In this document: positions 1 to 43,331 of the stretch, piece by piece | How positions within the stretch are numbered: the first letter of the stretch is position 1 | Layout: each line of letters starts with the position of its first letter | Source: an uncultured Chloroflexia bacterium | GTDB taxonomy: Bacteria > Chloroflexota > Limnocylindria > Limnocylindrales > CSP1-4 | NCBI GenBank assembly: GCA_963819655.1 | Contig: CAWFXA010000002.1 | Location: forward strand, 1,015,361-1,079,360 | Reading direction: 5' to 3' | Length of the DNA: 64,000 nt | Position numbers and translations under genes: made by a program | The notes under the pieces: model-generated | Seen by the model: the letters and a program-made list of their open reading frames with translations, nothing else | What the model was told of the DNA's origin: nothing | Database searches by the model: none

Positions 1-975
1 GGGGTCGATCTGGAGCAGGCCGCGGTTGGCCGTCGTGCCGCCGTGGCCGTCGCCGTACGTTTCGAGCATCGCGCCGGTGAAGTTCTCGAGGACGCCGTCC
101 ATCATCAACTTGACGCTCGTCGGCGCGTACCGCCCGATGGCCGTCGCGCGCCGCCGTTCGATGAACTCCTCGATCTGCTCGGGGCCGCGGTTGCGATCCC
201 ACCACAGCGCGCCCACGACGCGACCGGTCAGCTCGCCGCGGGCGGCCAACGTCAAATACGCGCGCTCCTCCGTGTGCGGCTCGACGATCGCATCCTGCCA
301 GGCAGTGATGCCGAACCCGTGCAGGTGCCGCTGGCCCAGGCGAAGAGCTTCCTCGAGCTCGGCGGGCGTGTTGTCTGGCAGCAGCCGGGCGACCAGGTCC
401 ATGGCGCCTTCGTGGAGCGTGCCGCTCGGGGTCCCGTCCGGGTCGCGCTCGATCCGCCCGTCAGACGGATCGAGGGTCGCTGCCGTCACGCCGGCGAGCT
501 CCAGCGCCTTCGTGTTCACCCATGCGCCGTGGCCGTCCCGGTTCGTCAGGAACACCGGGCGATCCGGGAGGATCCGATCCAAAACCTCCCGACGCGGCGT
601 GCCGCCATCGAATGCCGCCATGTACCAGCCGCCGCCGCGGATCCATGCCTCGTCCGGGTGTGACCGTGCGTATGCCTCGATGACGTCGATGTCCTTTCCG
701 GACTCCGCGTCCGCATGGAGATCGCACCGAAGCATCGCGAGACCGCCGTGGACCGGATGCACGTGGGCATCCTGGAACCCGGGCGTGACCGTTCGTCCGC
801 GAAGGTCGATGACGCGCGATCGCGGCCCGATCAGGCCCTCGACCACTCGATCGGGCCCCACCGCCACGATCCGGCCATCACGAACAGCGAGGGCGGTCGC
901 CCACGAGCGTGCCGTGTCCATCGTCGCGATGCGGCCGTCACGGAGGATGAGGTCGGCGGGCTGTTCGGTCGTCAT
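1..975 (-). CDS. Amidohydrolase-family (metal-dependent hydrolase, YtcJ-like) protein, 3'-partial (C-terminus lies beyond window start)
   Basis: Manual reverse-strand translation from ATG at 975 gives MTTEQPADLILRDGRIATMDTARSWATALAVRDGRIVAVGPDRVVEGLIGPRSRVIDLRGRTVTPGFQDAHVHPVHGG..., a typical amidohydrolase N-terminus with the HxH metal motif. It is absent from the ORF track because there is no in-window stop. Confidence 0.7.
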   Translation of the reverse strand, partial: MTTEQPADLILRDGRIATMDTARSWATALAVRDGRIVAVGPDRVVEGLIGPRSRVIDLRGRTVTPGFQDAHVHPVHGGLAMLRCDLHADAESGKDIDVIEAYARSHPDEAWIRGGGWYMAAFDGGTPRREVLDRILPDRPVFLTNRDGHGAWVNTKALELAGVTAATLDPSDGRIERDPDGTPSGTLHEGAMDLVARLLPDNTPAELEEALRLGQRHLHGFGITAWQDAIVEPHTEERAYLTLAARGELTGRVVGALWWDRNRGPEQIEEFIERRRATAIGRYAPTSVKLMMDGVLENFTGAMLETYGDGHGGTTANRGLLQIDP

Positions 976-1049
976 CAGCGGAGTCTGGCGGGTCGCGCCG
1001 TGCGCCCCGACCGCATCCCACCCGGCGCGACGGCGTAGCATCGCCGCCC

Positions 1050-1598
1050 ATGGCATCGGTCCACCTCCTCCACGCCGGCTACTCGGGCGAGCGGACGGCA
1101 TCGTCGATCGTGCTGGTGCGCGACGGTGACGCACTCATCGTCAGCGATCCGGGGATGGTCGCGCGCCGCTCGCTGATCCTCGATCCCCTGGCGGAGCTCG
1201 GGATCGATCCGGCAGCGGTGACGCACGTCTTCCTCAGCCATCACCACCCCGACCACACGATCAACGTGGCGCTCTTTCCGAACGCCGAGGTGGTCGATTT
1301 CTGGGCCCGCTACCGCGACGACCTGTGGCTCGACATGCCGGGTGACGGGTACCGCCTCTCCCCGAACGCCCAGTTGTGGCTGACCCCCGGCCACACGGCC
1401 GAGGACGCGTCGTTGATCGTCGAAGCGGACGACGGCGTCTACGCGATGACCCATCTGTGGTGGCACGCGGACCGCACTCCCGAGTTCGATCCGGTCGCCG
1501 ACGACCAGGGGGCGATCGCGGCCGGTCGCGAGCGCGTGCTGGCGGTCGCCGACGTGGTCATCCCTGGTCATGGCGGCGCTTTCCGGGTGGCCCGCTAG
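1050..1598 (+). CDS. MBL-fold metallo-hydrolase
   Basis: HHHPDH (HxHxDH) zinc-binding motif; the 182-aa length fits a beta-lactamase-fold hydrolase. Confidence 0.8.
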   Translation: MASVHLLHAGYSGERTASSIVLVRDGDALIVSDPGMVARRSLILDPLAELGIDPAAVTHVFLSHHHPDHTINVALFPNAEVVDFWARYRDDLWLDMPGDGYRLSPNAQLWLTPGHTAEDASLIVEADDGVYAMTHLWWHADRTPEFDPVADDQGAIAAGRERVLAVADVVIPGHGGAFRVAR

Positions 1599-4701: not shown

Positions 4702-5040
4702 TCAGTCGGGCCGCACCGTCCGGAAGCAGTCCGAGCAGTACACGGGGCGGTCCATCCGGGGTCGGAACGGGACCTGCGCCTGGTTGCCGCACGACGAGCA
4801 GACCACCGCGAAGTACTCGCGATCGGGGCGCTCGACGCTCCGCTCGTAGCCGCGCGGGCCGCCGATCTCGCGGACGTCGTAGCCCCCATCGCGAGCCGCC
4901 CGACGGCTGGCGCGGCAGCTCGTGCATCGCTTCGGGTCGGAGGCGAAACCCTTCTGGACGTAATACTCCTGATCGGCCGCCGAATGGATGAATTCGACGC
5001 CGCAGTCGACACATGTGAGGGTCCGATCAGCGTAGGTCAC
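4702..5040 (-). CDS. Zinc-ribbon domain protein (four CxxC pairs)
   Basis: CVDCG...CTSCR...CSSCG...CSDC motifs. The ORF-track ORF (4702..5232) appears over-extended; a GTG at 5040 is preceded by GGAGGAG 5 nt upstream, giving a 112-aa product. Confidence 0.6.
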   Translation of the reverse strand: MTYADRTLTCVDCGVEFIHSAADQEYYVQKGFASDPKRCTSCRASRRAARDGGYDVREIGGPRGYERSVERPDREYFAVVCSSCGNQAQVPFRPRMDRPVYCSDCFRTVRPD

Positions 5041-5259
5041 GTTGCTCCTCCGGGACGCGATGGTCGGCTGGGTGCGCCTGCGGAGGGCGACCGCATCGGC
5101 AGTCGGGAAAGCGAGGTCTGGCGAGAGAAGCCGGGCCCCGGCGACCCAGGTGCCGATGTCGGAATCCCTGTCTGCGGGGCGCACCGGTTCGTTCGTGCGG
5201 CGCAGGATACAACGGCTTCGAAAATCGGACATGCCAGCGGCGTAGGCTGGCTGGCGGCC

Positions 5260-5278
5260 GTGACAACGTACCTGTCAC
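5260..5278. promoter_or_regulatory. Perfect palindrome GTGACA-N7-TGTCAC in the divergent promoter region between the zinc-ribbon gene and sbcD
   Basis: Read directly from the sequence; ~130 bp upstream of the sbcD start. Confidence 0.25.
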
Positions 5279-5406
5279 AATGGCGCGCGAGGATCCGGGG
5301 TGGCGAGCGGGGAGTCATGGGGGCGCCTCGCTCGCGCCATACCACCAGGGTAGCGCCGGATCGTGATCGCCCGAGCCGTCAGCAATGAGAGGGCAGACCC
5401 GAGCGG

Positions 5407-6597
5407 ATGCTACGGATCATCCACACCGCGGACGTCCACCTCGGCGCGCGCCACGACGACCTCGGTGAGCAGGCCAGCGCCCAACGCGAGCGCCAATTCG
5501 CCGCCTTCGCGGCCACCGTCGATCTGGCGCTGGCCGAGAAGGTCGACCTCGTCCTGATCGCCGGCGACCTGTTCGACAGCAACGTCCAGCCGCGGCGGTC
5601 GGTCGAACGCGTCGCTGCGGAGATCAAGCGGCTCGCGGGCGGCAAGATCCGGACCGTGATCGTGCCCGGGACCCACGACGCATACGACCGGTCGTCGATA
5701 TACCGCGCGTACGACCTGAAGGCCATGTCCGGAAGCACGCCGGACGACGACTGGGTGACGGTCCTGACGCCCGAGCTGCCGCGGATCCACCTGTCCGCCT
5801 GCGACGTCGTCGTTCATGGCCCCGTCTTCGCGACGAAGCGTGCGCCGCACAGCCCTCTACGCGACCTCGATGTCGCGTCCCACAAGGGCACCGCGGCGTG
5901 GCAGGTCGGCGTGCTCCACGGCTCGGTCGCGATCCCCGGCAAGACGGACCGCGACGACGTCGTCATCACGACCGACGAGATCGGTGCGAGCGGTCTCGAC
6001 TACCTCGCCCTCGGCCACTGGCATTCGGCGCGCCAAGGCAAGTCCGGCGGCGTGACCTTCGCCTATTCGGGCGCGCCAGAGCCTGTCGCGCTCAACCAGG
6101 ATCGTGCCGGCAGGGTCCTGCACGTCCAGCTCGAACAGACGGGTCCCGGGCGCAGCGTCGGCGTCACGGAGCGAGCGGTCGGCAAGACGCGTTTCGAGAA
6201 ATTGGAGCTCGATGCCGCCGGGGTGACGACCCAGCCTGCGCTGATCGACAGCCTCAAGCGCAAGGGCGATCCCGACCTGGTCCTCGACGCCCGGATCGTC
6301 GGCGTGCGCCCGGACGAGCTCGACCTCCACCCCGAGGAGATCGAGACTGCCCTCGCTCCATCGTTCCTGAAGGTGCGCGTGCGCGACCTGAGCTCGCCCG
6401 CATTGACCGAGGGAATCCTCCCGTCGCCCGACACCATCGCCGGCGCCTTCATCCGCGATCTCGAGGCGCGCATCGCCGAGCTCGAGGCGGCGCCCGCGTC
6501 CGGATCCGAGGTCGACACCGCGGTCGAGGCGGCCGAGTTGCGCGACTCGCTCCGGCTCGGCCGGCTCCTGTTGGACGGCCACGAGGTGTCCCTGTGA
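5407..6597 (+). CDS. sbcD: DNA repair exonuclease SbcD/Mre11-family (YhaO/SbcF-like metallophosphoesterase)
   Basis: N-terminal IHTADVHLG and GDLFD calcineurin-like phosphoesterase motifs; GTGA overlap with the downstream ATPase gene. Confidence 0.85.
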   Translation: MLRIIHTADVHLGARHDDLGEQASAQRERQFAAFAATVDLALAEKVDLVLIAGDLFDSNVQPRRSVERVAAEIKRLAGGKIRTVIVPGTHDAYDRSSIYRAYDLKAMSGSTPDDDWVTVLTPELPRIHLSACDVVVHGPVFATKRAPHSPLRDLDVASHKGTAAWQVGVLHGSVAIPGKTDRDDVVITTDEIGASGLDYLALGHWHSARQGKSGGVTFAYSGAPEPVALNQDRAGRVLHVQLEQTGPGRSVGVTERAVGKTRFEKLELDAAGVTTQPALIDSLKRKGDPDLVLDARIVGVRPDELDLHPEEIETALAPSFLKVRVRDLSSPALTEGILPSPDTIAGAFIRDLEARIAELEAAPASGSEVDTAVEAAELRDSLRLGRLLLDGHEVSL

Positions 6598-10265: not shown

Positions 10266-11138
10266 CTACGCCGTCGCCGCTCGGCGGACCTCGTAGCCGC
10301 CTCCCTCCGCGGGACGGATCTCATAGCTCGGCTGGTCGTAGACGGTCGGGCCTCGTCGAGCGAGGCCGTCGACCAGTCGGTATCGCGAGAAGTGCCAGGG
10401 GCACTCGATGCAGCCGTCGACCAGCCGGCCCTCGTTCAAGGGGCCCCCGGCATGAGCGCACACGTTGTGCATCGCGTGAAGGGTGCCCCCGATGCGCACC
10501 ACCACGAGGTCGTTGATGCCGGCGCGCATCTTGGTCGGCGTCGCCTCGGGAAGGTGATCGAGATCGGTCACGGTGCCCGTATCGAGACGGACCCATCTGG
10601 TGCCCGCCCCGCGGAACGCATGGCGGCTGACCATGTTGCCGAGCAGGTACACGACGTCTCCGCCGACGAACGCCCCTGCGCTCACGATCAGGAACCCGAT
10701 GATCGACAGCGCGATCGGCACGGTCCGGTCGACGGGCGCGCCGGCGCGCATCAGTGCTGACACGATCAGCACGAGCAGGGTCACGGTCATCAAGGACGCG
10801 TGCAGCGTCGCTCGGGTCAGTGGCGTGCCGGTCGTCTCGCTGTAGTCGGCCAGGCCCGACAGCGCCGCGAGGACCATGAACACGATCGTCCCGATCAGGA
10901 CGATGTCAGCCGCGGTCGGCTGGCCGAGCACATCCAGGATGACGACCCCGAGCAGCATGCCGATCGGGATGTCGGTCGACGCCGCATGGAGTGGGTGGCC
11001 GAGCCAGCGGCCGTTGAGCAGGTCCCGGATCGGCGGCATCGCGCGGAACAGCGCCGAGGTCCAGCGGTGGTTGAACTCCCCGAACGGCCGTGCCCAGCCG
11101 TCGTTCAGTGATACCAGTCGAGCCAGCAGTCGTGCCAT
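10266..11138 (-). CDS. Membrane protein (DUF2231-like N-terminus) fused to a Rieske [2Fe-2S] domain
   Basis: Four TM helices followed by CAHAGGPL...CIECPWHFS (CxH...CxxH Rieske ligands); GGGAGG RBS before the ATG at 11138. Confidence 0.75.
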   Translation of the reverse strand: MARLLARLVSLNDGWARPFGEFNHRWTSALFRAMPPIRDLLNGRWLGHPLHAASTDIPIGMLLGVVILDVLGQPTAADIVLIGTIVFMVLAALSGLADYSETTGTPLTRATLHASLMTVTLLVLIVSALMRAGAPVDRTVPIALSIIGFLIVSAGAFVGGDVVYLLGNMVSRHAFRGAGTRWVRLDTGTVTDLDHLPEATPTKMRAGINDLVVVRIGGTLHAMHNVCAHAGGPLNEGRLVDGCIECPWHFSRYRLVDGLARRGPTVYDQPSYEIRPAEGGGYEVRRAATA

Positions 11139-12071
11139 CGACCCACCTCCCGTTGAAGGAATCTACGCCGCGCGGGTCGTGTATGGATGCTGCAAGCGTG
11201 GCCGTCCACATTCCGTCCACACTCGGGGGAATCTCGGGGATAAGCCATCGACCATTCAGACGAAGTTCGTGGATAAGGCGGTTGTGGCCGTATCGACCCG
11301 GCGGGTACATTTCGTCCTGCCCGAAGGGGCAGGTGCGAACCGCCAGACCGCACCGAGGAGCGATCCTCGGGACGGTCCCGGAAGCCGGGTTCGATAGTCG
11401 CAAGGCCGTCGAGCGAGGATTTCGGGCGGAGCGTAATGACTCCGGACTTGTTCGGAGCCGTTGCGAGACGACGGGCGGTCCTCCCACCAGTTCCTTCGGG
11501 CGCTTTCGTGTGCGCGGGAGTCTCTTGTCGCGCTCCGATGCGCCGAAAACGTGGTTCCTGGACTGCACGACTGGGCCGAAGCGAGCGCGCCGCTGACGCT
11601 CCGCAGCGCCCGACCGTGTCTGTGAGCGCGGAATCACGCCGCAGCGCCCGATCGTCTTTGAAGCACGGATCTCGCCGCAGCGTCGGTCCGACCATGAACT
11701 ACGCGGATGGCAGCGTCCTTAGGTCCGGAAGAGGTCGGTTAGACCTCGCTCTGGCCCCTACCGACCAGCCATAACGCCGCTATGGATGCGCGATGTGCAT
11801 GGTCGACGGCTGTGAAGGAGTCGATGGCGGCCCGGATCTCGACATTGCGTCGCTGGGATGCGCGTACTTCATGGTTGGGGAGGGGATTCGGGAGGCCGGG
11901 CGTGATTGGGAGTCCGGGCGGGTCGCGGGCGGCCGGGCGTGGATTCGGGCGCCCGGGCGGCCAAAAGCCGTGCTCGTATCTCGCCTCGAGCCTGATCTGC
12001 AGTCTGCCAGGCATACGTTCGACCGATCGCGCCGTGTGCGCCGACATGCTCGGCACGGTAGCCTCGCGCCG
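11139..12071. other. Unusually long non-coding region; candidate structured RNA or leader
   Basis: No protein-like ORF on either strand. Contains several stable hairpins with tetraloops (CCTGCCC-GAAG-GGGCAGG near 11318; CCCGG-AAG-CCGGG near 11366; C-UUCG-G near 11492), three ~40-bp imperfect repeats of CGCCGCAGCG(C/T)C (11598-11690), and GC-rich repeats of GGCCGGGCGTG(G)ATT(C)GGG (11880-11965). Confidence 0.3.
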
Positions 12072-13331
12072 GTGACCCCGCCTCTTGACGTCCGCCCCGC
12101 CGAGGACTGGCGCCGCCTACTCGTGGTCTTCTGGCTCACGTCGATGGTCGAGGCCCTCGGCGTCAGCCAGATCTTCGCCCTGGTCCCCTCGTACCTGCGG
12201 GAGATGGGCGTTCCACAGGACGAGCGGCTGGCTTTCGTCGGCTTGTTCTCTTCACTGATCTTCGTCGTGGGCATGCCGCTCGTCCCGCTGTGGGGCGTGT
12301 GGGCCGATAAATACAGCCGCAAGGCCGTCATCGTGCGGAGCGCGCTCGTCGAGGCAGTCGTGTTCGCCGGCGTCGCTCTGTCGCGCGAACCCTGGCAGCT
12401 CGCACTGAGCATGCTGCTGATCGGCTTCCAGCTGGGCAACACCGGGGTGATGCTGGCCGGCATCCGGGACGTCACGCCACTCGCCCGACTCGGCACTGTC
12501 ATGGGCATCTTCGGTGCCTCGACCGCTGTCGGTTTGGCGCTCGGCCCGACACTCGCCGGACTGCTCATCGACGGGTTCGGCTGGTCGCTGTCGGCAGTGT
12601 TCTGGTTGTCGGCCGGCCTCTCGATCGCGACGGCCTTGCTGGTCACGTTCGGCTCACGCGAGGTGCGCCCGTCCGTGATCCCGCAGGGGCGGATCGTCAC
12701 CCTCGCGTTCGGGGCGATGCGGGCCGTTCTGACGGACGCGACCGTCCGGCGGATCTTCCTGATCTTCGGTGTCTCGTTCCTGGCGACCCAGATGAGCCGG
12801 CCATACCTTCCGGTCGTCGTGGAAGGGCTCGCCGGGACCGGCGCCGGCCTCGCGTCGGCGATCGCGCTCGTCATGGGCACTGCGGCGCTGGTCGGCGGGC
12901 TCATCGCGCCGCTCGGTGGCTGGCTGGGCGACCGCGTCGGTTTTCGACCCGTCCTCGTGGCGGCCCTCGCGGGTGGTGGCGTGGTCCTGGCACTGATGCC
13001 GTTCGTGCCGTCGGTGGCCGCGCTGGCGGGCCTCGCCGTCATCCTCGCGGCCGCGACGGCCACGGTCAGCGCGATGGTGTTCGGCATGCTTGCGACCGAC
13101 GTGCCGGCCGACCGCCGCTCCGCCACGCTCAATCTCGTCTACCTGCCGCTGTACACGGCTGGGATCATCGGGCCGGCGCTCGGCGCCGCGGTCGTCGGGC
13201 TCGGTGGATTACCCGCGCCATTCGTCCTCGGCGCGGCGGTGTTTATCGCGGGCGCGATCGTGATCGCCACGCGCCGGGCGTCGAGCACGGCGGTCGCCGC
13301 CGCTCCTGGTGCGGTCAGCCTCGATCCCTGA
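12072..13331 (+). CDS. MFS transporter (12 TMS)
   Basis: The long ORF 11793..13331 has a non-protein-like N-terminal extension. The hydrophobic MFS body begins after a GTG at 12072 (VTPPLDVRPAEDWRRLLVVFWLTSMVEALGV...). Confidence 0.75.
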   Translation: MTPPLDVRPAEDWRRLLVVFWLTSMVEALGVSQIFALVPSYLREMGVPQDERLAFVGLFSSLIFVVGMPLVPLWGVWADKYSRKAVIVRSALVEAVVFAGVALSREPWQLALSMLLIGFQLGNTGVMLAGIRDVTPLARLGTVMGIFGASTAVGLALGPTLAGLLIDGFGWSLSAVFWLSAGLSIATALLVTFGSREVRPSVIPQGRIVTLAFGAMRAVLTDATVRRIFLIFGVSFLATQMSRPYLPVVVEGLAGTGAGLASAIALVMGTAALVGGLIAPLGGWLGDRVGFRPVLVAALAGGGVVLALMPFVPSVAALAGLAVILAAATATVSAMVFGMLATDVPADRRSATLNLVYLPLYTAGIIGPALGAAVVGLGGLPAPFVLGAAVFIAGAIVIATRRASSTAVAAAPGAVSLDP

Positions 13332-13599
13332 CAGCCGGCCGGAAACGGAGGCGCCGACGGACGTCCCCCAGACGAACCGTCGGCGCATGGATGGAGCAGC
13401 CCTCTCACGCATCCATACGACGCAGCGTCGCCATCGGATCACCGGCGCGCAAGCCGTCTCATCCCGACCGACCGTTCGGGGGTTTCCCGGACGTCGCCGG
13501 GGGCAGGGCCTCTGCTAGTGTCGGGTTGAGCTCGCGGCTCGCGCGATCCGCGAGGGTTGGCTCGAGGTGCCGCCGGGTCGGGGCTAGGCCGGGTCGCGC

Positions 13600-14490
13600 C
13601 TAGATAGGCTCGACCGCAGCGTGGCTCGGCGCCCGGCCGGCCGGCCGCATTGGTGCCACAGGTTCGCGCAGCGCGATGACTGCGAGGAGCATCGACAGCC
13701 CGCCGTACCACAGGGCAGGCAGGGCCAGCATCCCGGAGACCGGCACCGTCCAGCGGCGGCCCGTCCAGGCGCCCCACACGACCAGCGCGATCGCGAACGG
13801 CAGCCGCACGACGAACGGGATCGGGATGGCGGCCCAGGTCCCGTCCCGACCCGCGACTCGGCTCAGGACCTCGCCCCATGCGAGCCAGGCATCGGGCCAC
13901 ACGAGGAACGACACCGCCACGATGGCCGCCGTGGCTCCGAGGGCGATCGCCAAGTCCCGCCATTCGCGCCGGACGACGTACCACAGCAAGCCGATGCCGG
14001 GCGTGATCTTCGTCAGCAGCACGAGCGCCCACATCCATGGCCAGCGGAACGAGAGCACGATGGCGGCGGCCAGCAGAAGGTGGATGTTCCCGCCGGCAAG
14101 TTCCATCGCACCGAGCACGATGCCGACTGCCAGCCAGCGTCGACCGGTCAGCACGTACGTCGCCCCGAGGAGGATCGCCGTCCAGGCGGCCATGAACGCC
14201 TGCCACGGCAGCACCCGGATGGGCTGCAGCAACTGCAGGAACGCCGGCGAGTAGACGTAGGCGATCGGATCGGTCCAGTCGGACCGGGCGTACGGGTCTG
14301 CGAGGGTCGGGAACCAGTAGCAGTAGGCGTCCTGGCCGGTCCCCCACAGGCGACCCCACGGGGACGAGAACGCGACGATCGCCGCCCACGCGACGACGGC
14401 CATGCCCGGGCCGACCCATGGATGCCGATCGAGCCAGTGCCCGAGGCCCCTGGTCCACCCCTGGAACCGGTCGGCGAGGGGTCCGGTCAT
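13600..14490 (-). CDS. Glycosyltransferase family 87 / DUF2029 integral membrane protein (mannosyltransferase-like)
   Basis: 296 aa, polytopic and Trp-rich, as in GT87/PimE-like proteins. Confidence 0.65.
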   Translation of the reverse strand: MTGPLADRFQGWTRGLGHWLDRHPWVGPGMAVVAWAAIVAFSSPWGRLWGTGQDAYCYWFPTLADPYARSDWTDPIAYVYSPAFLQLLQPIRVLPWQAFMAAWTAILLGATYVLTGRRWLAVGIVLGAMELAGGNIHLLLAAAIVLSFRWPWMWALVLLTKITPGIGLLWYVVRREWRDLAIALGATAAIVAVSFLVWPDAWLAWGEVLSRVAGRDGTWAAIPIPFVVRLPFAIALVVWGAWTGRRWTVPVSGMLALPALWYGGLSMLLAVIALREPVAPMRPAGRAPSHAAVEPI

Positions 14491-38196: not shown

Positions 38197-39065
38197 CGGA
38201 CGAGGCGCCGCCTCTCCCACCACTCGTCGAGGGGACGCCGCCGCTCGCGATTCTCGTCGACTACGACGGGACGATCTCGCTGACCGACGTCACCGACCAG
38301 GTCATGGCCACGCATGCGCCTGCCATCTGGGAGGAGGCCGAGCGGCTCTACGCGGCGGGCGCGATGGGATCACGCCGGCTCATGGCCTGGGAGATGTCGA
38401 TGGTCGACGCGGATCCCGATGCGCTCCGGGCGACCGCCGCGGCCCAGCCGCACGATCCCGGGTTCGTCCCCTTCGTCCGCCGCGCTCAGGCGGCCGGCAT
38501 CCCGGTCGAGGTCGTGTCCGACGGATTCGGATTCTTCATCCGCCCGGCCCTGGAGCGACTCGGGGTGGGGGAGCTCCCGGTGGTGACCGCGCGGACAGAT
38601 TTCGATGACCGACGACCCTCGCTGCATTTCCCCAACGGCCACCCGACCTGCCTCGTCTGCGGGACGTGCAAGCGACAGCGAGTCCTGGCCCATCGGGCCG
38701 CGGGTCGACTCGTCGTGTTCATCGGCGACGGCGACAGCGATCGGTATGCCGCCGGTTACAGCGACATCGTGTTCGCGAAGCGAGCACTGGAACGGATCTG
38801 CCTCGAGGCGGGCTGGGCGTACCGCCGCTGGACCGCGTTCAGCGAGCTGGAAGGGTGGCTGGCGGAGACGCTCGTGGGATGGGCGCGCGATCCCTCCAGC
38901 CTGACGCCGCCGGAGCCGGGTCCCCCGCGTGGCTATTTCTGCGGCCCCGAGGTGTGGGGCGACGGCCTGGAGGATCCGCCCCCAGGTTCGTGGCCGCCGC
39001 CGGAACCAACAGGCGTTACGTCAAAGGTGACAAGCGACGAGAGACCCGGCGGCGTTGAGCCCTAG
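38193..39065 (+). CDS. HAD-IB-family hydrolase (MtnX-like phosphatase)
   Basis: LVDYDGTIS HAD motif I, GDGDSD motif IV, and a CLVCGTCK motif; ATGA overlap with the upstream DMT gene. Confidence 0.65.
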   Translation: MTDEAPPLPPLVEGTPPLAILVDYDGTISLTDVTDQVMATHAPAIWEEAERLYAAGAMGSRRLMAWEMSMVDADPDALRATAAAQPHDPGFVPFVRRAQAAGIPVEVVSDGFGFFIRPALERLGVGELPVVTARTDFDDRRPSLHFPNGHPTCLVCGTCKRQRVLAHRAAGRLVVFIGDGDSDRYAAGYSDIVFAKRALERICLEAGWAYRRWTAFSELEGWLAETLVGWARDPSSLTPPEPGPPRGYFCGPEVWGDGLEDPPPGSWPPPEPTGVTSKVTSDERPGGVEP

Positions 39066-39073
39066 AAGCTGAG

Positions 39074-39092
39074 TGTCACGCGTGCCGTGACA
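39074..39092. promoter_or_regulatory. Perfect palindrome TGTCACG-N5-CGTGACA upstream of pyrG (immediately after the HAD gene stop)
   Basis: Read directly; same half-sites (TGTCAC/GTGACA) and 7-bp spacing as the palindrome at 5260, but everted. Confidence 0.25.
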
Positions 39093-39216
39093 TCCGAGGG
39101 GGGAAGGTCGACCTGCTCGGCTGCGTTCGTCCGTTGTGACACCAATGGCCAACACCGCGGATTCGCGTCCGGGGCCTCTTTCCGATAGCATCAGAAAAAC
39201 CCCGGAGGAACCCTGA

Positions 39217-40899
<1,683 letters not shown>

Positions 40900-40952: not shown

Positions 40953-41840
40953 ATGGCCACGCCGACGTTTCGCGACCGAGAGTGTCGGGAGCTCCTGGCA
41001 TTCGACGAGGTTCGCCACCGACTCGGCTTAGGGACTCGTCTCCCGGGGGGCCGGCGCGAGGTCGCCGTCGCCGACATCATCGGGTCGGTCGGCCGGGTGT
41101 CCGATTTCGACGGCTGCTTCCGGCCCAGGAACCGACGCCTTCGTGATGAGATCCGTATCCGTGCGGCGAGTCCGGTGGTGGTCGACATGCCGCTCTCGCT
41201 GCTCCAGGTGGATCACGCCTTCTTCGTCGAGGACGGCCACAAGCGGCTCTCGGCGGCGATCGCCGACGGTCGTCAGTACGTCGATGCGAACGTCGACCAA
41301 TTCGAGACGCGCTTCCACGTCGCGCCCGGGACGACCATGGCATCCATCCGGGTCACCGCCAGCGAGCGTAGGTTCCGGAAGGTGACCGGCCTCGATGCGG
41401 CAGTCCCGCGACGACGGTTCCCGCTCTCGGATCCGGACGGCTACCTCGAGCTCCAGGAGTCCGTGAAGGCGCACACGCTCGACTACTCCCGGGCCGAGGC
41501 GCGACTCGTCTCCCCGGAGGAGGGCGCCCGGCACTGGTACGAGACCGTGTTCGTGCCGATCCTCGAGCTGATCGACTCGACCGGCATGGGCAAGCTTCTC
41601 GAGTCGATGACCGACGCGGACCGCTTCCTGTTGTTCAGGCGTGGCATCGACGTGCCGATGTTGCCCGGCTGGCGCATCCCTCGTGCCGCGGCCGAGCGAG
41701 GGGTGGAGAACATCACGGATCGAACGCAGGTCACGCGGACCAAGCGACTTGCCTCGCTCGCTCGACGCCCCAAGAAGCGCAACGCACCGCTCCTGCCGGA
41801 GGAGACTCAGGGCGACGATGGCGGGTCGTCAGCGCCCTGA
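40953..41840 (+). CDS. Hypothetical protein, possible ParB/sulfiredoxin-like N-terminal domain
   Basis: VVDMPLSLLQVDHAFFVEDGHKRLSAAIADG resembles the DGHHR-type ParB/Srx fold motif. Confidence 0.45.
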   Translation: MATPTFRDRECRELLAFDEVRHRLGLGTRLPGGRREVAVADIIGSVGRVSDFDGCFRPRNRRLRDEIRIRAASPVVVDMPLSLLQVDHAFFVEDGHKRLSAAIADGRQYVDANVDQFETRFHVAPGTTMASIRVTASERRFRKVTGLDAAVPRRRFPLSDPDGYLELQESVKAHTLDYSRAEARLVSPEEGARHWYETVFVPILELIDSTGMGKLLESMTDADRFLLFRRGIDVPMLPGWRIPRAAAERGVENITDRTQVTRTKRLASLARRPKKRNAPLLPEETQGDDGGSSAP

Positions 41841-42047
41841 CCCGCCGTCATTGGTGGTGCCGCCGCGCACCGTCCCGCACGGGAGCGGGTCAGCGCCACG
41901 CGACGCGACCCGCCACCAGGGGTCAGACTAGCCAGCACTCAACGGTGGGTCGCGCGGTCCGGACGACGTCGATGACCCCAAAGACATCACGTCGTCGATC
42001 GCACCCCAGCGACCCTCCATGGACCACGCCTGGTAGGAGGAGAGTCC

Positions 42048-43331
42048 ATGCGTAGGCTGGCCATCCTGGCCGTATCCATCCTGATGCTCGCTGCCGTTCC
42101 GGCGGCATCCGCACGCACGACCGACGCGTACGACGCGCCAACCGCGAGTGGACTGTGCGAGGCCTTCTTCGGCGTCAGCGCCGGACCGGAGCCGCTGTCC
42201 GCGTGTCAGTGGGATATGCGGTACATCAACGCCAATGCCGCCTCCCGCGCCCTCGCCACAGGCGATGGCGTGACCGTCGGCGTCATCGACAGCGGAATCG
42301 ACTTCACGCACCCGGACCTCGACAACATCGACGTCGGGCTCTCGTGTTCGTTCATCAACACCGATACGCCGACCGCCGATCCAGCCGAGATCGCGAACGG
42401 CGACTGTTCGAACAAATCGGCAGTCCAGGACCTGAACGGTCATGGGACCCATGTCGCAACGACGATCGCGGGTGCGCTCGATGGCACCGGCATCGTCGGC
42501 GTGGCCCCGGACGCAACGATCGTAAGCCTCAAGGCCTGCACGATCATCGGCTTCTGTTTCGTCGATTCGGTCGCGGCCGCGCTGCGCTATGCAGGCGACC
42601 AAGGCATCGATGTCGTCAACCTCAGCCTGTTCGCCGACCCGTACCTCTACTACTGCAGCAACGACGCGGGCCAGCGGGCGATGTACCAGGAGATGAAGAA
42701 CGCGGCGAAGTACGCGCAGCAGCGCGGCACCGTCGTGGTCGCCGCGGCCGGCAACGAGCTGCACGACCTCGGTCACCCCGTGACCGACGAGATCAGCCCC
42801 GACTGGCCGCCTGACACAGCCGAGAGCCGTCGGATCCACAACAACTGCCGCGTCGCCCCCGCAGAGCTGCCGGGCGTCGTGACGGTATCGGCCTCCGGCG
42901 TGAACACGCTGGCGGGCTACTCCAACGTCGGCAGCCCGATCGATGTCACGGCCCCGGGCGGCGATGCCGCTCAGACGCCGGGCACGACCTTCGGTCGGAT
43001 CCTGGCGGGTTGGTCCAGCACAGACGGAACCGGCTCGTGGGAGTTCTTCGCTGCCACCGGCCGAGCCGTCCTCGACGACGGCGGTCGATACGTCTGGATC
43101 AGCGGGACGTCGATGGCGTCACCGCACGCCGCGGGTGTCGCAGCGTTGATCATCGAGAACCACCCGGGCTGGAACCAGGGAGCCGTGGCGGCTGCAGTGC
43201 GGTCCACCGCGACGCCGATGGCCTGCCCGAGCCCAGCCGATCCGAACCTCCCCCGCTGCTTTGGCGGTCGTGGCAACACGACCTTCTTCGGCGCCGGCAT
43301 GGTGAACGCCCTGGCGGCCGCCTCGAAGTAA
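42048..43331 (+). CDS. S8-family serine peptidase (subtilisin-like), secreted
   Basis: Catalytic triad contexts VIDSGID, NGHGTHVA, GTSMASPH; Sec signal peptide. Confidence 0.9.
   Translation: MRRLAILAVSILMLAAVPAASARTTDAYDAPTASGLCEAFFGVSAGPEPLSACQWDMRYINANAASRALATGDGVTVGVIDSGIDFTHPDLDNIDVGLSCSFINTDTPTADPAEIANGDCSNKSAVQDLNGHGTHVATTIAGALDGTGIVGVAPDATIVSLKACTIIGFCFVDSVAAALRYAGDQGIDVVNLSLFADPYLYYCSNDAGQRAMYQEMKNAAKYAQQRGTVVVAAAGNELHDLGHPVTDEISPDWPPDTAESRRIHNNCRVAPAELPGVVTVSASGVNTLAGYSNVGSPIDVTAPGGDAAQTPGTTFGRILAGWSSTDGTGSWEFFAATGRAVLDDGGRYVWISGTSMASPHAAGVAALIIENHPGWNQGAVAAAVRSTATPMACPSPADPNLPRCFGGRGNTTFFGAGMVNALAAASK

Follow-up and report, generated by a model that had tools for sequence, protein, structure and literature searches.

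A conserved structured RNA with an upstream array of DnaA-box-like sites in Limnocylindria and related Chloroflexota

Several described systems resemble parts of the locus reported here. With 6S RNA (SsrS) and the actinobacterial Ms1 RNA it shares a length of about 190 nt, a stand-alone position, termini held in a closing stem and a housekeeping-like conservation. The orphan ncRNAs raiA-motif RNA, ROOL, GOLLD, HEARO and OLE are likewise stand-alone, multi-helix RNAs with GNRA tetraloops and strong covariation that occur in restricted lineages, and bacterial Y RNA (YrlA, the Ro60/Rsr-associated RNA) also has a sequence-conserved stem of its 5′ and 3′ ends with a branched domain at the far end. 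Junction riboswitches (lysine, M-box, cobalamin) are of similar length (about 190 nt) and have in common with it a closing P1, GNRA loops, a multi-way junction and, sometimes, transporter or Mg2+-related genes downstream. At the DNA level, the locus is similar to DnaA-box clusters and promoters (those of dnaA, of Bacillus subtilis, and E. coli datA and DARS) in having 9-mers that lie one or two mismatches from TTATCCACA or TTGTCCACA, stand in both orientations at spacings of whole helical turns and adjoin a promoter. The Limnocylindria (Ellin6529 or CSP1-4-type Chloroflexota), almost all uncultured, abound in soils and lakes, and we know of nothing reported on their RNA biology.

The stretch of DNA analysed (the window, 64,000 nt) contains a gap between genes that the sequence-only reading had singled out as being some 930 bp long and devoid of a credible ORF. 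The gap is real, measuring 933 nt (11139-12071), and is bounded by the following genes:

10266-11138, minus strand: 290-aa membrane protein with DUF2231 and, C-terminally, a Rieske [2Fe-2S] domain, taken from the ORF list and divergent from the RNA described below
12072-13331, plus strand: MFS_1 transporter, 419 aa, with a GTG start

The Rieske-gene product matches Pfam Rieske (E 4e-15) and DUF2231 (E 3.5e-6) and its gene has strong codon periodicity; a look-up of the exact protein returned no record. The MFS protein (Pfam MFS_1, E 8e-34) is drug:H+ antiporter-like but falls below the NCBIfam cut-offs, and the codon periodicity of its gene begins near 12070. Over 11139-12071, GC content by codon position is flat (spread 0.04-0.22, versus 0.4-0.5 in the flanking genes), and of all stretches of low codon periodicity in the window the one here is the longest, at 1050 nt as opposed to 600 nt for the runner-up, in agreement with the lack of a credible ORF. 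The ORFs called within it are indeed Arg/Pro-rich, and none of the seven scanned has a Pfam match. Long open frames on both strands, which are usual at 67% G+C, might be read as a small protein-coding gene or a decayed pseudogene whose RNA structure is incidental. Against this, apart from the flat codon-position signal and the missing Pfam matches, the conserved element described below varies in length by steps of 1-2 nt (193-202 nt, evenly spread over all residues modulo 3, with no preference for multiples of three), and the substitutions in its helices are compensatory. We rejected a protein-coding gene on the absence of codon periodicity, frame-preserving indels and homologues, and regard a coding origin as highly improbable. 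ARAGORN predicted no tRNA or tmRNA gene in the window.

Of the gap, only about 11200-11518 matches 37 of 80 genome loci carrying an MFS orthologue (73-89% identity); the RNA also recurs in 120 metagenome contigs, its hosts being Chloroflexota of soil and freshwater. The other 43 MFS loci, which had no BLAST match, were searched with nhmmer and yielded no divergent copies of the RNA. Compared with four relatives, the RNA is 93-97% identical, versus 83-92% for coding sequences and 64-83% at third codon positions. IMG/VR, PLSDB and phage records contain nothing similar, so a viral or mobile origin is without support. The conserved RNA is composed of the following parts:

11318-11512, plus strand: structured ncRNA of about 195 nt, supported by covariance model, minimum free energy (MFE) fold and covariation, both ends being predicted
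11318-11344, plus strand: closing stem, 5′ strand; P1 is 11318-11330 (UGCCCGAAGGGGC), followed by P2 and P3
11346-11377, plus strand: hairpin A, 12 bp with internal loops and a GCGA (GNRA) tetraloop at 11360-11363
11378-11425, plus strand: hairpin B, 18 bp with internal loops and a GCAA tetraloop at 11400-11403
11427-11470, plus strand: hairpin C, 16 bp with a CUUG loop at 11447-11450
11474-11502, plus strand: closing stem, 3′ strand; P1 is 11490-11502 (GUUCCUUCGGGCG)
11503-11512, plus strand: conserved U-rich tail CUUUCGUGUG directly after P1, the likely transcript end

The first 13 nt of the RNA pair with its last 13 nt to form P1, and the 25-bp closing stem that joins the two ends carries three hairpins, two of them GNRA-capped. 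The MFE of this RNA is -110.3 kcal/mol, with a z-score of -4.68 on the plus strand versus -2.75 on the minus strand. A covariance model scores 217.5 bits on the plus strand versus 35.6 on the minus strand, as the single match in the window, and across members it scores 150-222 bits sense and 22-43 antisense. Three distant members (L177, L127 and L173) showed the same architecture when folded singly. The suggestion that the gap encodes a structured ncRNA therefore holds for 11318-11512, about 195 of the 933 nt, where conservation exceeds that of the coding flanks and covariation and strand preference are found, but not for the remainder. Two hairpins proposed at 11318-11336 (GAAG loop) and near 11492 (UUCG loop) do pair, not as separate hairpins but as the two strands of the 13-bp long-range helix that closes the 195-nt RNA; a third, at 11366-11380, lies outside the conserved fold.

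Covariation in support of this fold is strong, and strand preference is clear. We scored an alignment of 37 sequences made with MAFFT only (A2), using a structure derived from the window's own MFE fold, and a model-aligned set of 101 distinct sequences; alignment A5 was fitted to the covariance model. In A2, 92.5% of cells pair, versus 32-48% when partners are slid, and 23 pairs show double changes, versus 2-7 in the slid controls; in the model-aligned set the figures are 90.4% versus 32-50% of cells and 47 of 71 versus 20-28 pairs, although cell counts overstate the number of independent events because many sequences are closely related and most main-group loci lie in one synteny block. None of 500 shuffles reached the observed values in either set. 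Double changes affect 9 pairs in P2 and P3 (helix 1), 6 pairs in hairpin A (helix 2, 93% of cells paired), all 18 pairs of hairpin B (helices 3 and 4) and 14 of the 16 pairs of hairpin C (helices 5 and 6), the base of which varies between 2 and 5 bp by lineage. P1 is invariant in all 37 sequences of A2; the 36 genome loci in this alignment were located via the MFS protein and are the only ones unbiased for P1. Positions 2-12 of each P1 strand are also invariant in the 120 metagenome copies, because the retrieval pattern demanded them, and variants with another P1 would escape it. A crude all-against-all covariation screen for pseudoknots was too noisy for anything to be called. We conclude that the hairpin-rich part of the gap is far beyond chance.

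The U-rich tail reads GUUUUUUUGUG, i.e. U7, in the distant member L099. Together with P1 it could terminate transcription; in the window, a local 5′ hairpin, CUGCCC-GAAG-GGGCAG, competes with P1. Since all these positions are invariant, neither the putative P1/tail terminator nor the competing hairpin gains support from covariation. A consensus terminator scan made no call at the tail, its sole terminator-like site lying inside the MFS gene.

Rfam 15 (4227 families) gave no gathering-level match in the whole window, and permissive searches of 11300-11520 and 10500-12700 returned chance matches only (at most 19 bits, E at least 0.67); eight distant members had no match either. The Rfam scan advised in the sequence-only reading thus leaves no part of the gap accounted for by a family. 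Literature searches on Limnocylindria and Chloroflexota ncRNAs, Chloroflexi 6S RNA and DnaA-box sRNAs, together with a 50-genome survey (PMC11109978), likewise brought up no account of the RNA.

We considered whether the RNA could be an abundant, RNA polymerase-binding analogue of 6S RNA or Ms1 that the Rfam 6S model misses. Its size of about 195 nt, the long closing stem formed between its termini, its high conservation, its single copy per locus and its stand-alone gene with a putative sigma-70-like promoter would all suit such an analogue. However, in place of a rod opened by a large central bubble, the interior forms a covariation-supported junction of three stable hairpins (12, 18 and 16 bp) with compensatory changes in every one of them, and no 6S-family match was seen even at E = 10. 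An analogue of 6S RNA is, in our judgement, unlikely. Unlike Y RNA, the RNA is larger and its branched domain lacks tRNA-like T or D arms, there is no Rfam match, and no Ro/TROVE protein (rsr) was found among the neighbouring proteins scanned against Pfam or NCBIfam. From the orphan ncRNAs it differs by its smaller size, about 195 nt, and by the lack of any sequence or structure match; to our knowledge, a box-plus-promoter module such as that described next is not known for raiA-motif RNA, ROOL, GOLLD, HEARO or OLE. Being better conserved than the neighbouring proteins, having a supported fold and matching nothing in Rfam 15, the RNA represents a concrete new RNA class.

Conservation extends upstream of the RNA, where the following elements were recognized:

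11202-11210, plus strand: box 1, CCGTCCACA, TCCAC core, two mismatches to TTGTCCACA
11213-11221, plus strand: box 2, CCGTCCACA, a direct repeat of box 1 at an offset of 11 nt
11235-11243, minus strand: box 3, CGGGGATAA on the plus strand and TTATCCCCG on the minus strand, two mismatches to TTATCCACA
11268-11276, minus strand: box 4, CGTGGATAA on the plus strand and TTATCCACG on the minus strand, one mismatch to TTATCCACA
11282-11287, plus strand: putative -35 element TTGTGG
11306-11311, plus strand: putative -10 element TACATT (TAnnnT), separated from the -35 element by 18 nt and lying 7 nt ahead of the initial G of the closing stem

The four boxes share the TCCAC core and are phased, two as direct and two as inverted copies, at about -117, -106, -84 and -51. 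In the 133 unique upstream regions, box 1 invariably lies at -117 relative to the initial G of GCCCGAAGG, and box 3 reads GGGGATAA in 128 of them; box 4 starts 33 nt after box 3, and TTCGTGGATAAG is invariant in an alignment of 36 sequences (A1). Every one of the 133 regions carries 4-7 boxes (at most two mismatches to TTRTCCACA) per 140 nt at fixed positions, and the window-wide background for TTATCCACA alone is about 0.09 per 120 nt. Several 9-mers near TTATCCACA or TTGTCCACA thus stand together well over background, as in a DnaA-box cluster. As for the promoter, GTTGT of the -35 element is invariant in A1, and 130 of 132 unique sequences fit the arrangement TTG[TC][GC]N, 17-18 nt, TAnnnT, 6-7 nt and the GCC of P1; the spacer is variable in sequence and fixed in length. 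A scan with the sigma-70 consensus called no promoter at the gap, so the promoter is deduced from this conservation pattern. We also considered the boxes as part of the RNA, given that RNAalifold pairs TCCACA with TGTGG, and found no support for this, the positions being invariant and some cells broken. The upstream module always accompanies the RNA; in the sister clade, the Rieske-MFS spacers measure 50-80 nt and contain neither.

The boxes match TTATCCACA or TTGTCCACA, which would make DnaA the best candidate for the protein that binds them; an OmpR/PhoB-type regulator reading the direct TCCACA-N5-TCCACA repeats may bind instead. Compared with established DnaA-box clusters, the module has only four core boxes, these being putative sites recognized by sequence; it lacks an unwinding element and is not near dnaA, no dnaA gene being present in the window or at any of 200 loci. 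Boxes of this kind raise the question of whether the conserved unit is mainly a DNA element, that is, a replication origin or a DnaA-titrating or reactivating locus comparable to datA, DARS or the Bacillus clusters, with the RNA secondary; the folded RNA may, for example, be a transcript that activates an origin. The DnaA-box-like 9-mers (4-7, in both orientations, with spacings of 11 and 33 nt), their invariance across lineages and the divergent flanking genes in the window would fit such an element, as would the neighbours of the unit in other lineages, a DnaB_C-domain gene in one divergent group and a ParB-like ORF (seen by eye) in another. However, the region is 63-67% G+C without an AT-rich unwinding element, dnaA is absent, gene orientation does not switch at 11 kb, GC skew there shows a weak trend opposite in sign to that expected of an origin, and four boxes would be few for one. 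The RNA part, moreover, shows strand-specific covariation that relies on G.U pairs, for which a function in DNA only cannot account. Base composition, skew, gene orientation and the lack of dnaA in the window and at the 200 loci led us to reject an oriC, and we hold a predominantly DNA-level function to be improbable.

The sequence-only reading had offered a long 5′ leader of the MFS gene as an alternative to a structured ncRNA. A cis-regulatory leader (riboswitch or attenuator) of a transporter gene, with P1 and the U-tail as a ligand-dependent terminator, would be in keeping with the aptamer-like multi-helix junction with GNRA loops, with the U-rich tract immediately 3′ of P1 and with the main group, in which the MFS gene is co-oriented and usually begins 60-100 nt 3′ of the RNA. 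Elsewhere, co-oriented genes for inorganic pyrophosphatase and CorA, both linked to Mg2+ or pyrophosphate, lie downstream. Taken over all lineages, though, the genes 3′ of the RNA (MFS on the plus strand, a convergent GT87-like gene, pyrophosphatase and CorA) are unrelated in function, and some contigs that bear the RNA are devoid of an MFS gene. The sister clade, in turn, has MFS orthologues but no RNA beside them, and in the window 560 nt of unconserved spacer separate the RNA from the MFS start. A convergent gene comes next in L181, L126, L194 and 12 mid-group contigs, all of which retain a fully conserved RNA; in L165 only 63 nt lie between the end of the RNA and the stop codon of the convergent gene. 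A 13-bp, G+C-rich P1 would also form regardless of ligand, and we found no conserved alternative pairing (anti-terminator). Because the neighbours change between lineages and the downstream gene is convergent in one clade, the reading of the RNA as an MFS leader is not supported. The junction riboswitches differ from it in the same respects: it has no consistent downstream gene, no Rfam match and no expression platform that we could find. A riboswitch or other cis-regulatory leader was accordingly rejected on gene context, the element not being consistently 5′ of, and co-oriented with, one set of genes, and we consider it unlikely.

The genes on the 5′ side of the RNA vary as well, comprising the Rieske gene (minus strand), a gene for a DnaB_C-only protein (plus strand) and, by eye, a photolyase-like ORF (plus strand). 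Also by eye, ORFs resembling ParB, IS110 transposase and PIN proteins were read 3′ of the RNA in three contigs.

We favour the reading that 11202-11512 is one compact transcription unit for a stand-alone, trans-acting structured ncRNA under control of the boxes, to which we assign a probability of about 75%. The data establish that the RNA is conserved, its fold and strand, that it does not depend on its neighbouring genes and that it occurs together with the boxes; its ends, binding by DnaA and a protein-bound role in trans are predictions. In such a unit, the four boxes would be followed by the promoter TTGTGG-18 nt-TACATT, transcription would start at about 11318, and the transcript would end in the U-rich tail at about 11505-11512. 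The RNA has no conserved single-stranded seed suited to antisense pairing; it would act in trans in its folded form, probably bound by protein. The invariant terminal helix, with its tandem G.U pairs, could serve as a recognition and stabilizing element as well as a termination hairpin. RNA abundance would be governed by a DNA-binding protein, possibly DnaA, that occupies the four boxes. Our best guess is thus a trans-acting, protein-bound RNA transcribed under a box-binding protein that may be DnaA.

The fuller proposal, that DnaA acts through the four boxes to control directly the synthesis of a new housekeeping-type RNA class specific to Limnocylindria and related Chloroflexota, is tentative, and we think it doubtful rather than probable. 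If the boxes are DnaA sites, they would constitute an unusual regulatory link from the initiation of replication to an ncRNA, and DnaA control would connect the replication state of the chromosome to an RNA-based, probably ribonucleoprotein, function. We are aware of no ncRNA proven to be a direct DnaA target and of no precedent for a DnaA-regulated promoter whose product is an ncRNA. Since the unit is compact and delimited (boxes, promoter, RNA and U-tail), it could be synthesized and studied in vitro or in a surrogate host with no need for a culture.

The rest of the gap lies outside this unit and is made up as follows:

11139-11201: region upstream of the Rieske gene, unconserved
11513-11641: spacer segment, common only to the near relatives L001, L002, L096, L109 and L052, with no sign of constraint
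11642-11965: insertion of about 324 nt, lineage-specific and confined to the window, L001 and L002
11966-12071, plus strand: region just 5′ of the MFS gene, 79-84% identical to L096, L109 and L052

The two segments that flank the insertion are contiguous in L096, L109 and L052, and the insertion region cannot be aligned with L003. The insertion contains the later copies of a 38-nt repeat, the AGGTCCGGAAG motif and the whole of a 19-nt repeat. The GC-rich repeats pointed out at 11880-11965 were recovered by Tandem Repeats Finder as 3.9 copies of 19 nt (11885-11959), while the repeats of about 40 bp at 11598-11690, said to be three, proved to be 2.2 copies of 38 nt (11601-11682). AGGTCCGGAAG is present near 11720 as stated; it is no conserved element, its sequence being unconserved beyond the nearest relatives and without an Rfam match. 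SRP RNA, which this motif brings to mind, was rejected: no SRP match appeared at E values up to 10, and the motif sits in the insertion, which L096, L109 and L052 lack. The repeats cited as evidence for an ncRNA lie outside the conserved element, mostly in an insertion shared with the closest relatives only, and match no Rfam family either. Self-BLAST of the gap against the window found no further copies and hence no evidence for a multi-copy (MITE- or REP-like) element. We conclude that 11513-12071 is neutral spacer that includes a young insertion, which has grown partly by tandem duplication. Two thirds of the 930-bp gap are thus young and unconstrained, a lesson for annotation against over-reading such sequence. 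Its last segment, 11966-12071, presumably holds the promoter and ribosome-binding site of the MFS gene.

The host genome of the window belongs to Chloroflexota (~70% G+C). Its nearest relatives in public databases are MAGs that carry the label Candidatus Limnocylindrales or uncultured Chloroflexia. The gap under study separates two divergent genes:

10266-11138, minus strand: membrane protein with DUF2231 and Rieske domains, left flank
11139-12071: the gap
12072 (GTG start), plus strand: MFS_1 transporter, right flank

G+C content by codon position was flat across the gap (spread 0.04-0.22, versus 0.4-0.5 in both flanking genes), and no other low-periodicity stretch within the 64 kb was as long. 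The ORFs inside the gap gave no match in a Pfam scan; the sequence-only reading had described a long gap without a credible ORF. Tandem Repeats Finder confirmed a 38-nt unit in 2.2 copies (11601-11682) and a 19-nt unit in 3.9 copies (11885-11959). Collectively, these data show that the gap and its features are real. Shorter low-periodicity stretches of 450-600 nt each occur at 41676-42276, 38851-39326 and 5001-5451, in none of which a gathering-level Rfam scan of the whole window found anything. Between the MFS and CorA genes, a 296-aa ORF (13600-14490, minus strand) has clear codon periodicity and no match in an NCBIfam scan; periodicity is absent from the ~270 nt ahead of it (13332-13600).

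We compared the gap with 80 genome loci encoding MFS orthologues. Only about a third of it, ~11200-11518, matched widely (37 of 80 loci, 73-89% nucleotide identity), while the rest matched only two loci, L001 and L002, and in part a third, L052. Against four relatives, the RNA segment was 93-97% identical, compared to 83-92% for coding sequences and 64-83% for third codon positions. The spacer at 11513-12071 behaves as neutral sequence: its identity to the two closest relatives is 80-90%, interrupted by many indels, and no alignment with locus L003 could be made. In L096, L109 and L052, segments 11513-11641 and 11966-12071 are directly joined, so that ~11642-11965 is an insertion (~324 nt relative to these loci) confined to the lineage that comprises the window, L001 and L002. 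It holds the 19-nt repeats, the later copies of the 38-nt repeat, the AGGTCCGGAAG motif and a 28-nt inverted repeat (11688-11715 / 11851-11878), and has no second copy within the window. Judged from these alignments, the two sets of repeats and the motif are young, unconstrained and outside any conserved RNA; the repeats, which lie mostly in this insertion, do not bear the weight given to them earlier. The RNA-to-MFS distance in other loci ranges from ~60 to ~1500 nt, which suggests that this spacer gathers insertions.

The plus strand of 11311-11512 folded at -110.3 kcal/mol (z -4.68, versus -2.75 for the reverse strand), with the following predicted elements:

11318-11512, plus strand: the RNA, ~195 nt
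11318-11344 with 11474-11502, plus strand: closing stem, 25 bp, leading to a junction that bears three hairpins
Outer 13 bp of the closing stem, plus strand: P1, UGCCCGAAGGGGC paired with GUUCCUUCGGGCG
11346-11377, plus strand: hairpin with GCGA loop
11378-11425, plus strand: hairpin with GCAA loop
11427-11470, plus strand: third hairpin

The GAAG hairpin and UUCG loop noted earlier correspond to the two strands of P1. The window's own MFE structure was tested on 37 sequences aligned with MAFFT alone (the window and 36 genome loci). Standard pairs filled 92.5% of cells, versus 32-48% with partners slid by 1-3 columns, and double changes occurred in 23 pairs, versus 2-7 in the slid controls; none of 500 shuffles reached the observed values. 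A covariance model was then built, and 120 further contigs were gathered by an exact-pattern metagenome scan. Among 101 distinct sequences, aligned by fitting to the model and including, as in the first set, many close relatives, 90.4% of cells paired (32-50% in controls) and compensatory double changes were seen in 47 of 71 pairs (20-28 in controls), values again reached by 0 of 500 shuffles. Since the metagenome pattern demanded positions 2-12 of both P1 strands, only the 36 genome loci give an unbiased view of how invariant these positions are.

The model scored 150-222 bits on the sense strand against 22-43 bits on the antisense and found a single copy in the window. Scores were 106-120 bits in one more divergent group and 63-78 bits in another; of four members of these groups folded alone, three (L177, L127 and L173) gave the same architecture. 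RNA lengths of 193-202 nt do not favor multiples of three, which rules out a coding origin. These models indicate that the conserved segment encodes, on its plus strand, a structured RNA; the proposal of a structured ncRNA therefore holds for 195 nt, by conservation and a covariation-backed fold, and not for the rest of the gap. One 1.7-kb metagenome contig (L186) carries two full inverted copies, at 99-297 (plus) and 940-1139 (minus), separated by an MFS fragment and followed by a Rieske fragment; a true duplication is less likely here than a chimeric or palindromic assembly.

The proposed Rfam scan returned no family in Rfam 15 for the window or distant members, and the RNA was not found in viral, plasmid and phage collections. 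We found no description of it in the literature on Limnocylindria/Chloroflexota ncRNA, 6S RNA or DnaA-box sRNA, nor did the terms searched in a 50-genome ncRNA survey (PMC11109978) lead to one. It is a real structured RNA family, apparently undescribed, whose gene has clear limits within an otherwise ordinary, partly young spacer.

The module directly upstream is as conserved as the RNA itself:

11202-11210 and 11213-11221, plus strand: two direct boxes, CCGTCCACA, starts 11 nt apart
11235-11243, read on the minus strand: inverted box TTATCCCCG
11268-11276, read on the minus strand: inverted box TTATCCACG, its start 33 nt from that of the TTATCCCCG box
11282-11287, plus strand: candidate -35, TTGTGG, from the conservation pattern
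11306-11311, plus strand: candidate -10, TACATT, from the conservation pattern

The pattern TTG[TC][GC]N, 17-18 nt, TAnnnT, 6-7 nt, GCC fits 130 of 132 unique sequences, its GCC being bases 2-4 of P1. A spacer variable in sequence but fixed in length characterizes -35/-10 promoters, and transcription would start at base 1 or 2 of P1. A U-rich tail directly follows the P1 3' strand (CUUUCGUGUG in the window, U7 in locus L099). Simple consensus scans called neither promoter nor terminator at the RNA, so both are deduced from conservation. The four boxes lie at fixed positions farther upstream; all 133 unique upstream regions hold 4-7 boxes that differ from TTRTCCACA at no more than two positions, and in the window background TTATCCACA alone occurs ~0.09 times per 120 nt. 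In a sister clade the Rieske-MFS distance is only 50-80 nt and boxes and RNA are missing together, which argues that they form one unit. We infer that boxes, promoter, RNA and tail make up a complete, self-contained transcription unit.

This unit (boxes, promoter and RNA) stays intact while its neighbors change among lineages:

Genes flanking the RNA (upstream; downstream). "By eye" marks a reading of translated ORFs rather than a family scan.
Main group: Rieske (minus); MFS (plus)
Mid group, 12 contigs: Rieske (minus); GT87-like membrane protein, convergent
Far group: DnaB_C-only protein (plus); inorganic pyrophosphatase (plus)
L181, L194: photolyase-like ORF, by eye (plus); GT87-like, convergent
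L170: photolyase-like ORF, by eye (plus); MFS (plus)
L159: Rieske (minus); CorA-like ORF, by eye (plus)
L173: none called; ParB-like ORF, by eye (plus)
L118: contig end; IS110-like transposase ORF, by eye (plus)
L088: Rieske (minus); PIN-like ORF, by eye (plus)

The closest convergent case is L165 of the mid group, where the GT87-like stop lies 63 nt from the RNA end. A conserved RNA whose next gene is convergent cannot be a 5' leader, and the suggested long leader of the MFS gene is not supported; we therefore read the RNA as a stand-alone gene.

The strongly conserved unpaired positions are confined to tetraloops and junction nucleotides, and the lack of a single-stranded seed makes a base-pairing sRNA unlikely. 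A folded RNA that acts in trans, protein-bound or otherwise tertiary-structured, would fit the compact junction, the GNRA loops and the terminal helix, which is invariant and contains tandem G.U pairs. The RNA may play a 6S-like role, but its fold is not 6S-like. The boxes agree well with the DnaA-box consensus, lie in both orientations and are separated by whole helical turns. Control of the RNA promoter by DnaA is therefore our leading hypothesis, at a tentative probability of 35-40% from sequence comparison; another regulator with a TCCAC-core site may act on the boxes instead. DnaA-like boxes could also mark an origin of replication, but this is unlikely: the locus lacks an AT-rich unwinding element, neither the 64 kb nor any of the 200 loci contains dnaA, gene orientation does not switch, and the weak trend in GC skew is opposite in sign to that of an origin.

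In two far-group loci (L177 and L178), the protein directly upstream of the box and RNA unit, with inorganic pyrophosphatase downstream, has 373-416 aa and a DnaB_C domain only (Pfam E 6e-27), without the DnaB N-terminal domain. Such replication/partition-type neighbors beside DnaA-like boxes, including the ParB-like ORF of L173 (by eye), may be coincidence. The IS110-family-like transposase ORF of L118 (by eye) is inserted ~240 nt downstream of the RNA. Finally, a contig labelled "Patescibacteria group bacterium" (L006, DATNFQ010000076.1) has the same Rieske-RNA-MFS locus with 84% MFS identity, and probably comes from Chloroflexota, having been mis-binned or mislabelled.
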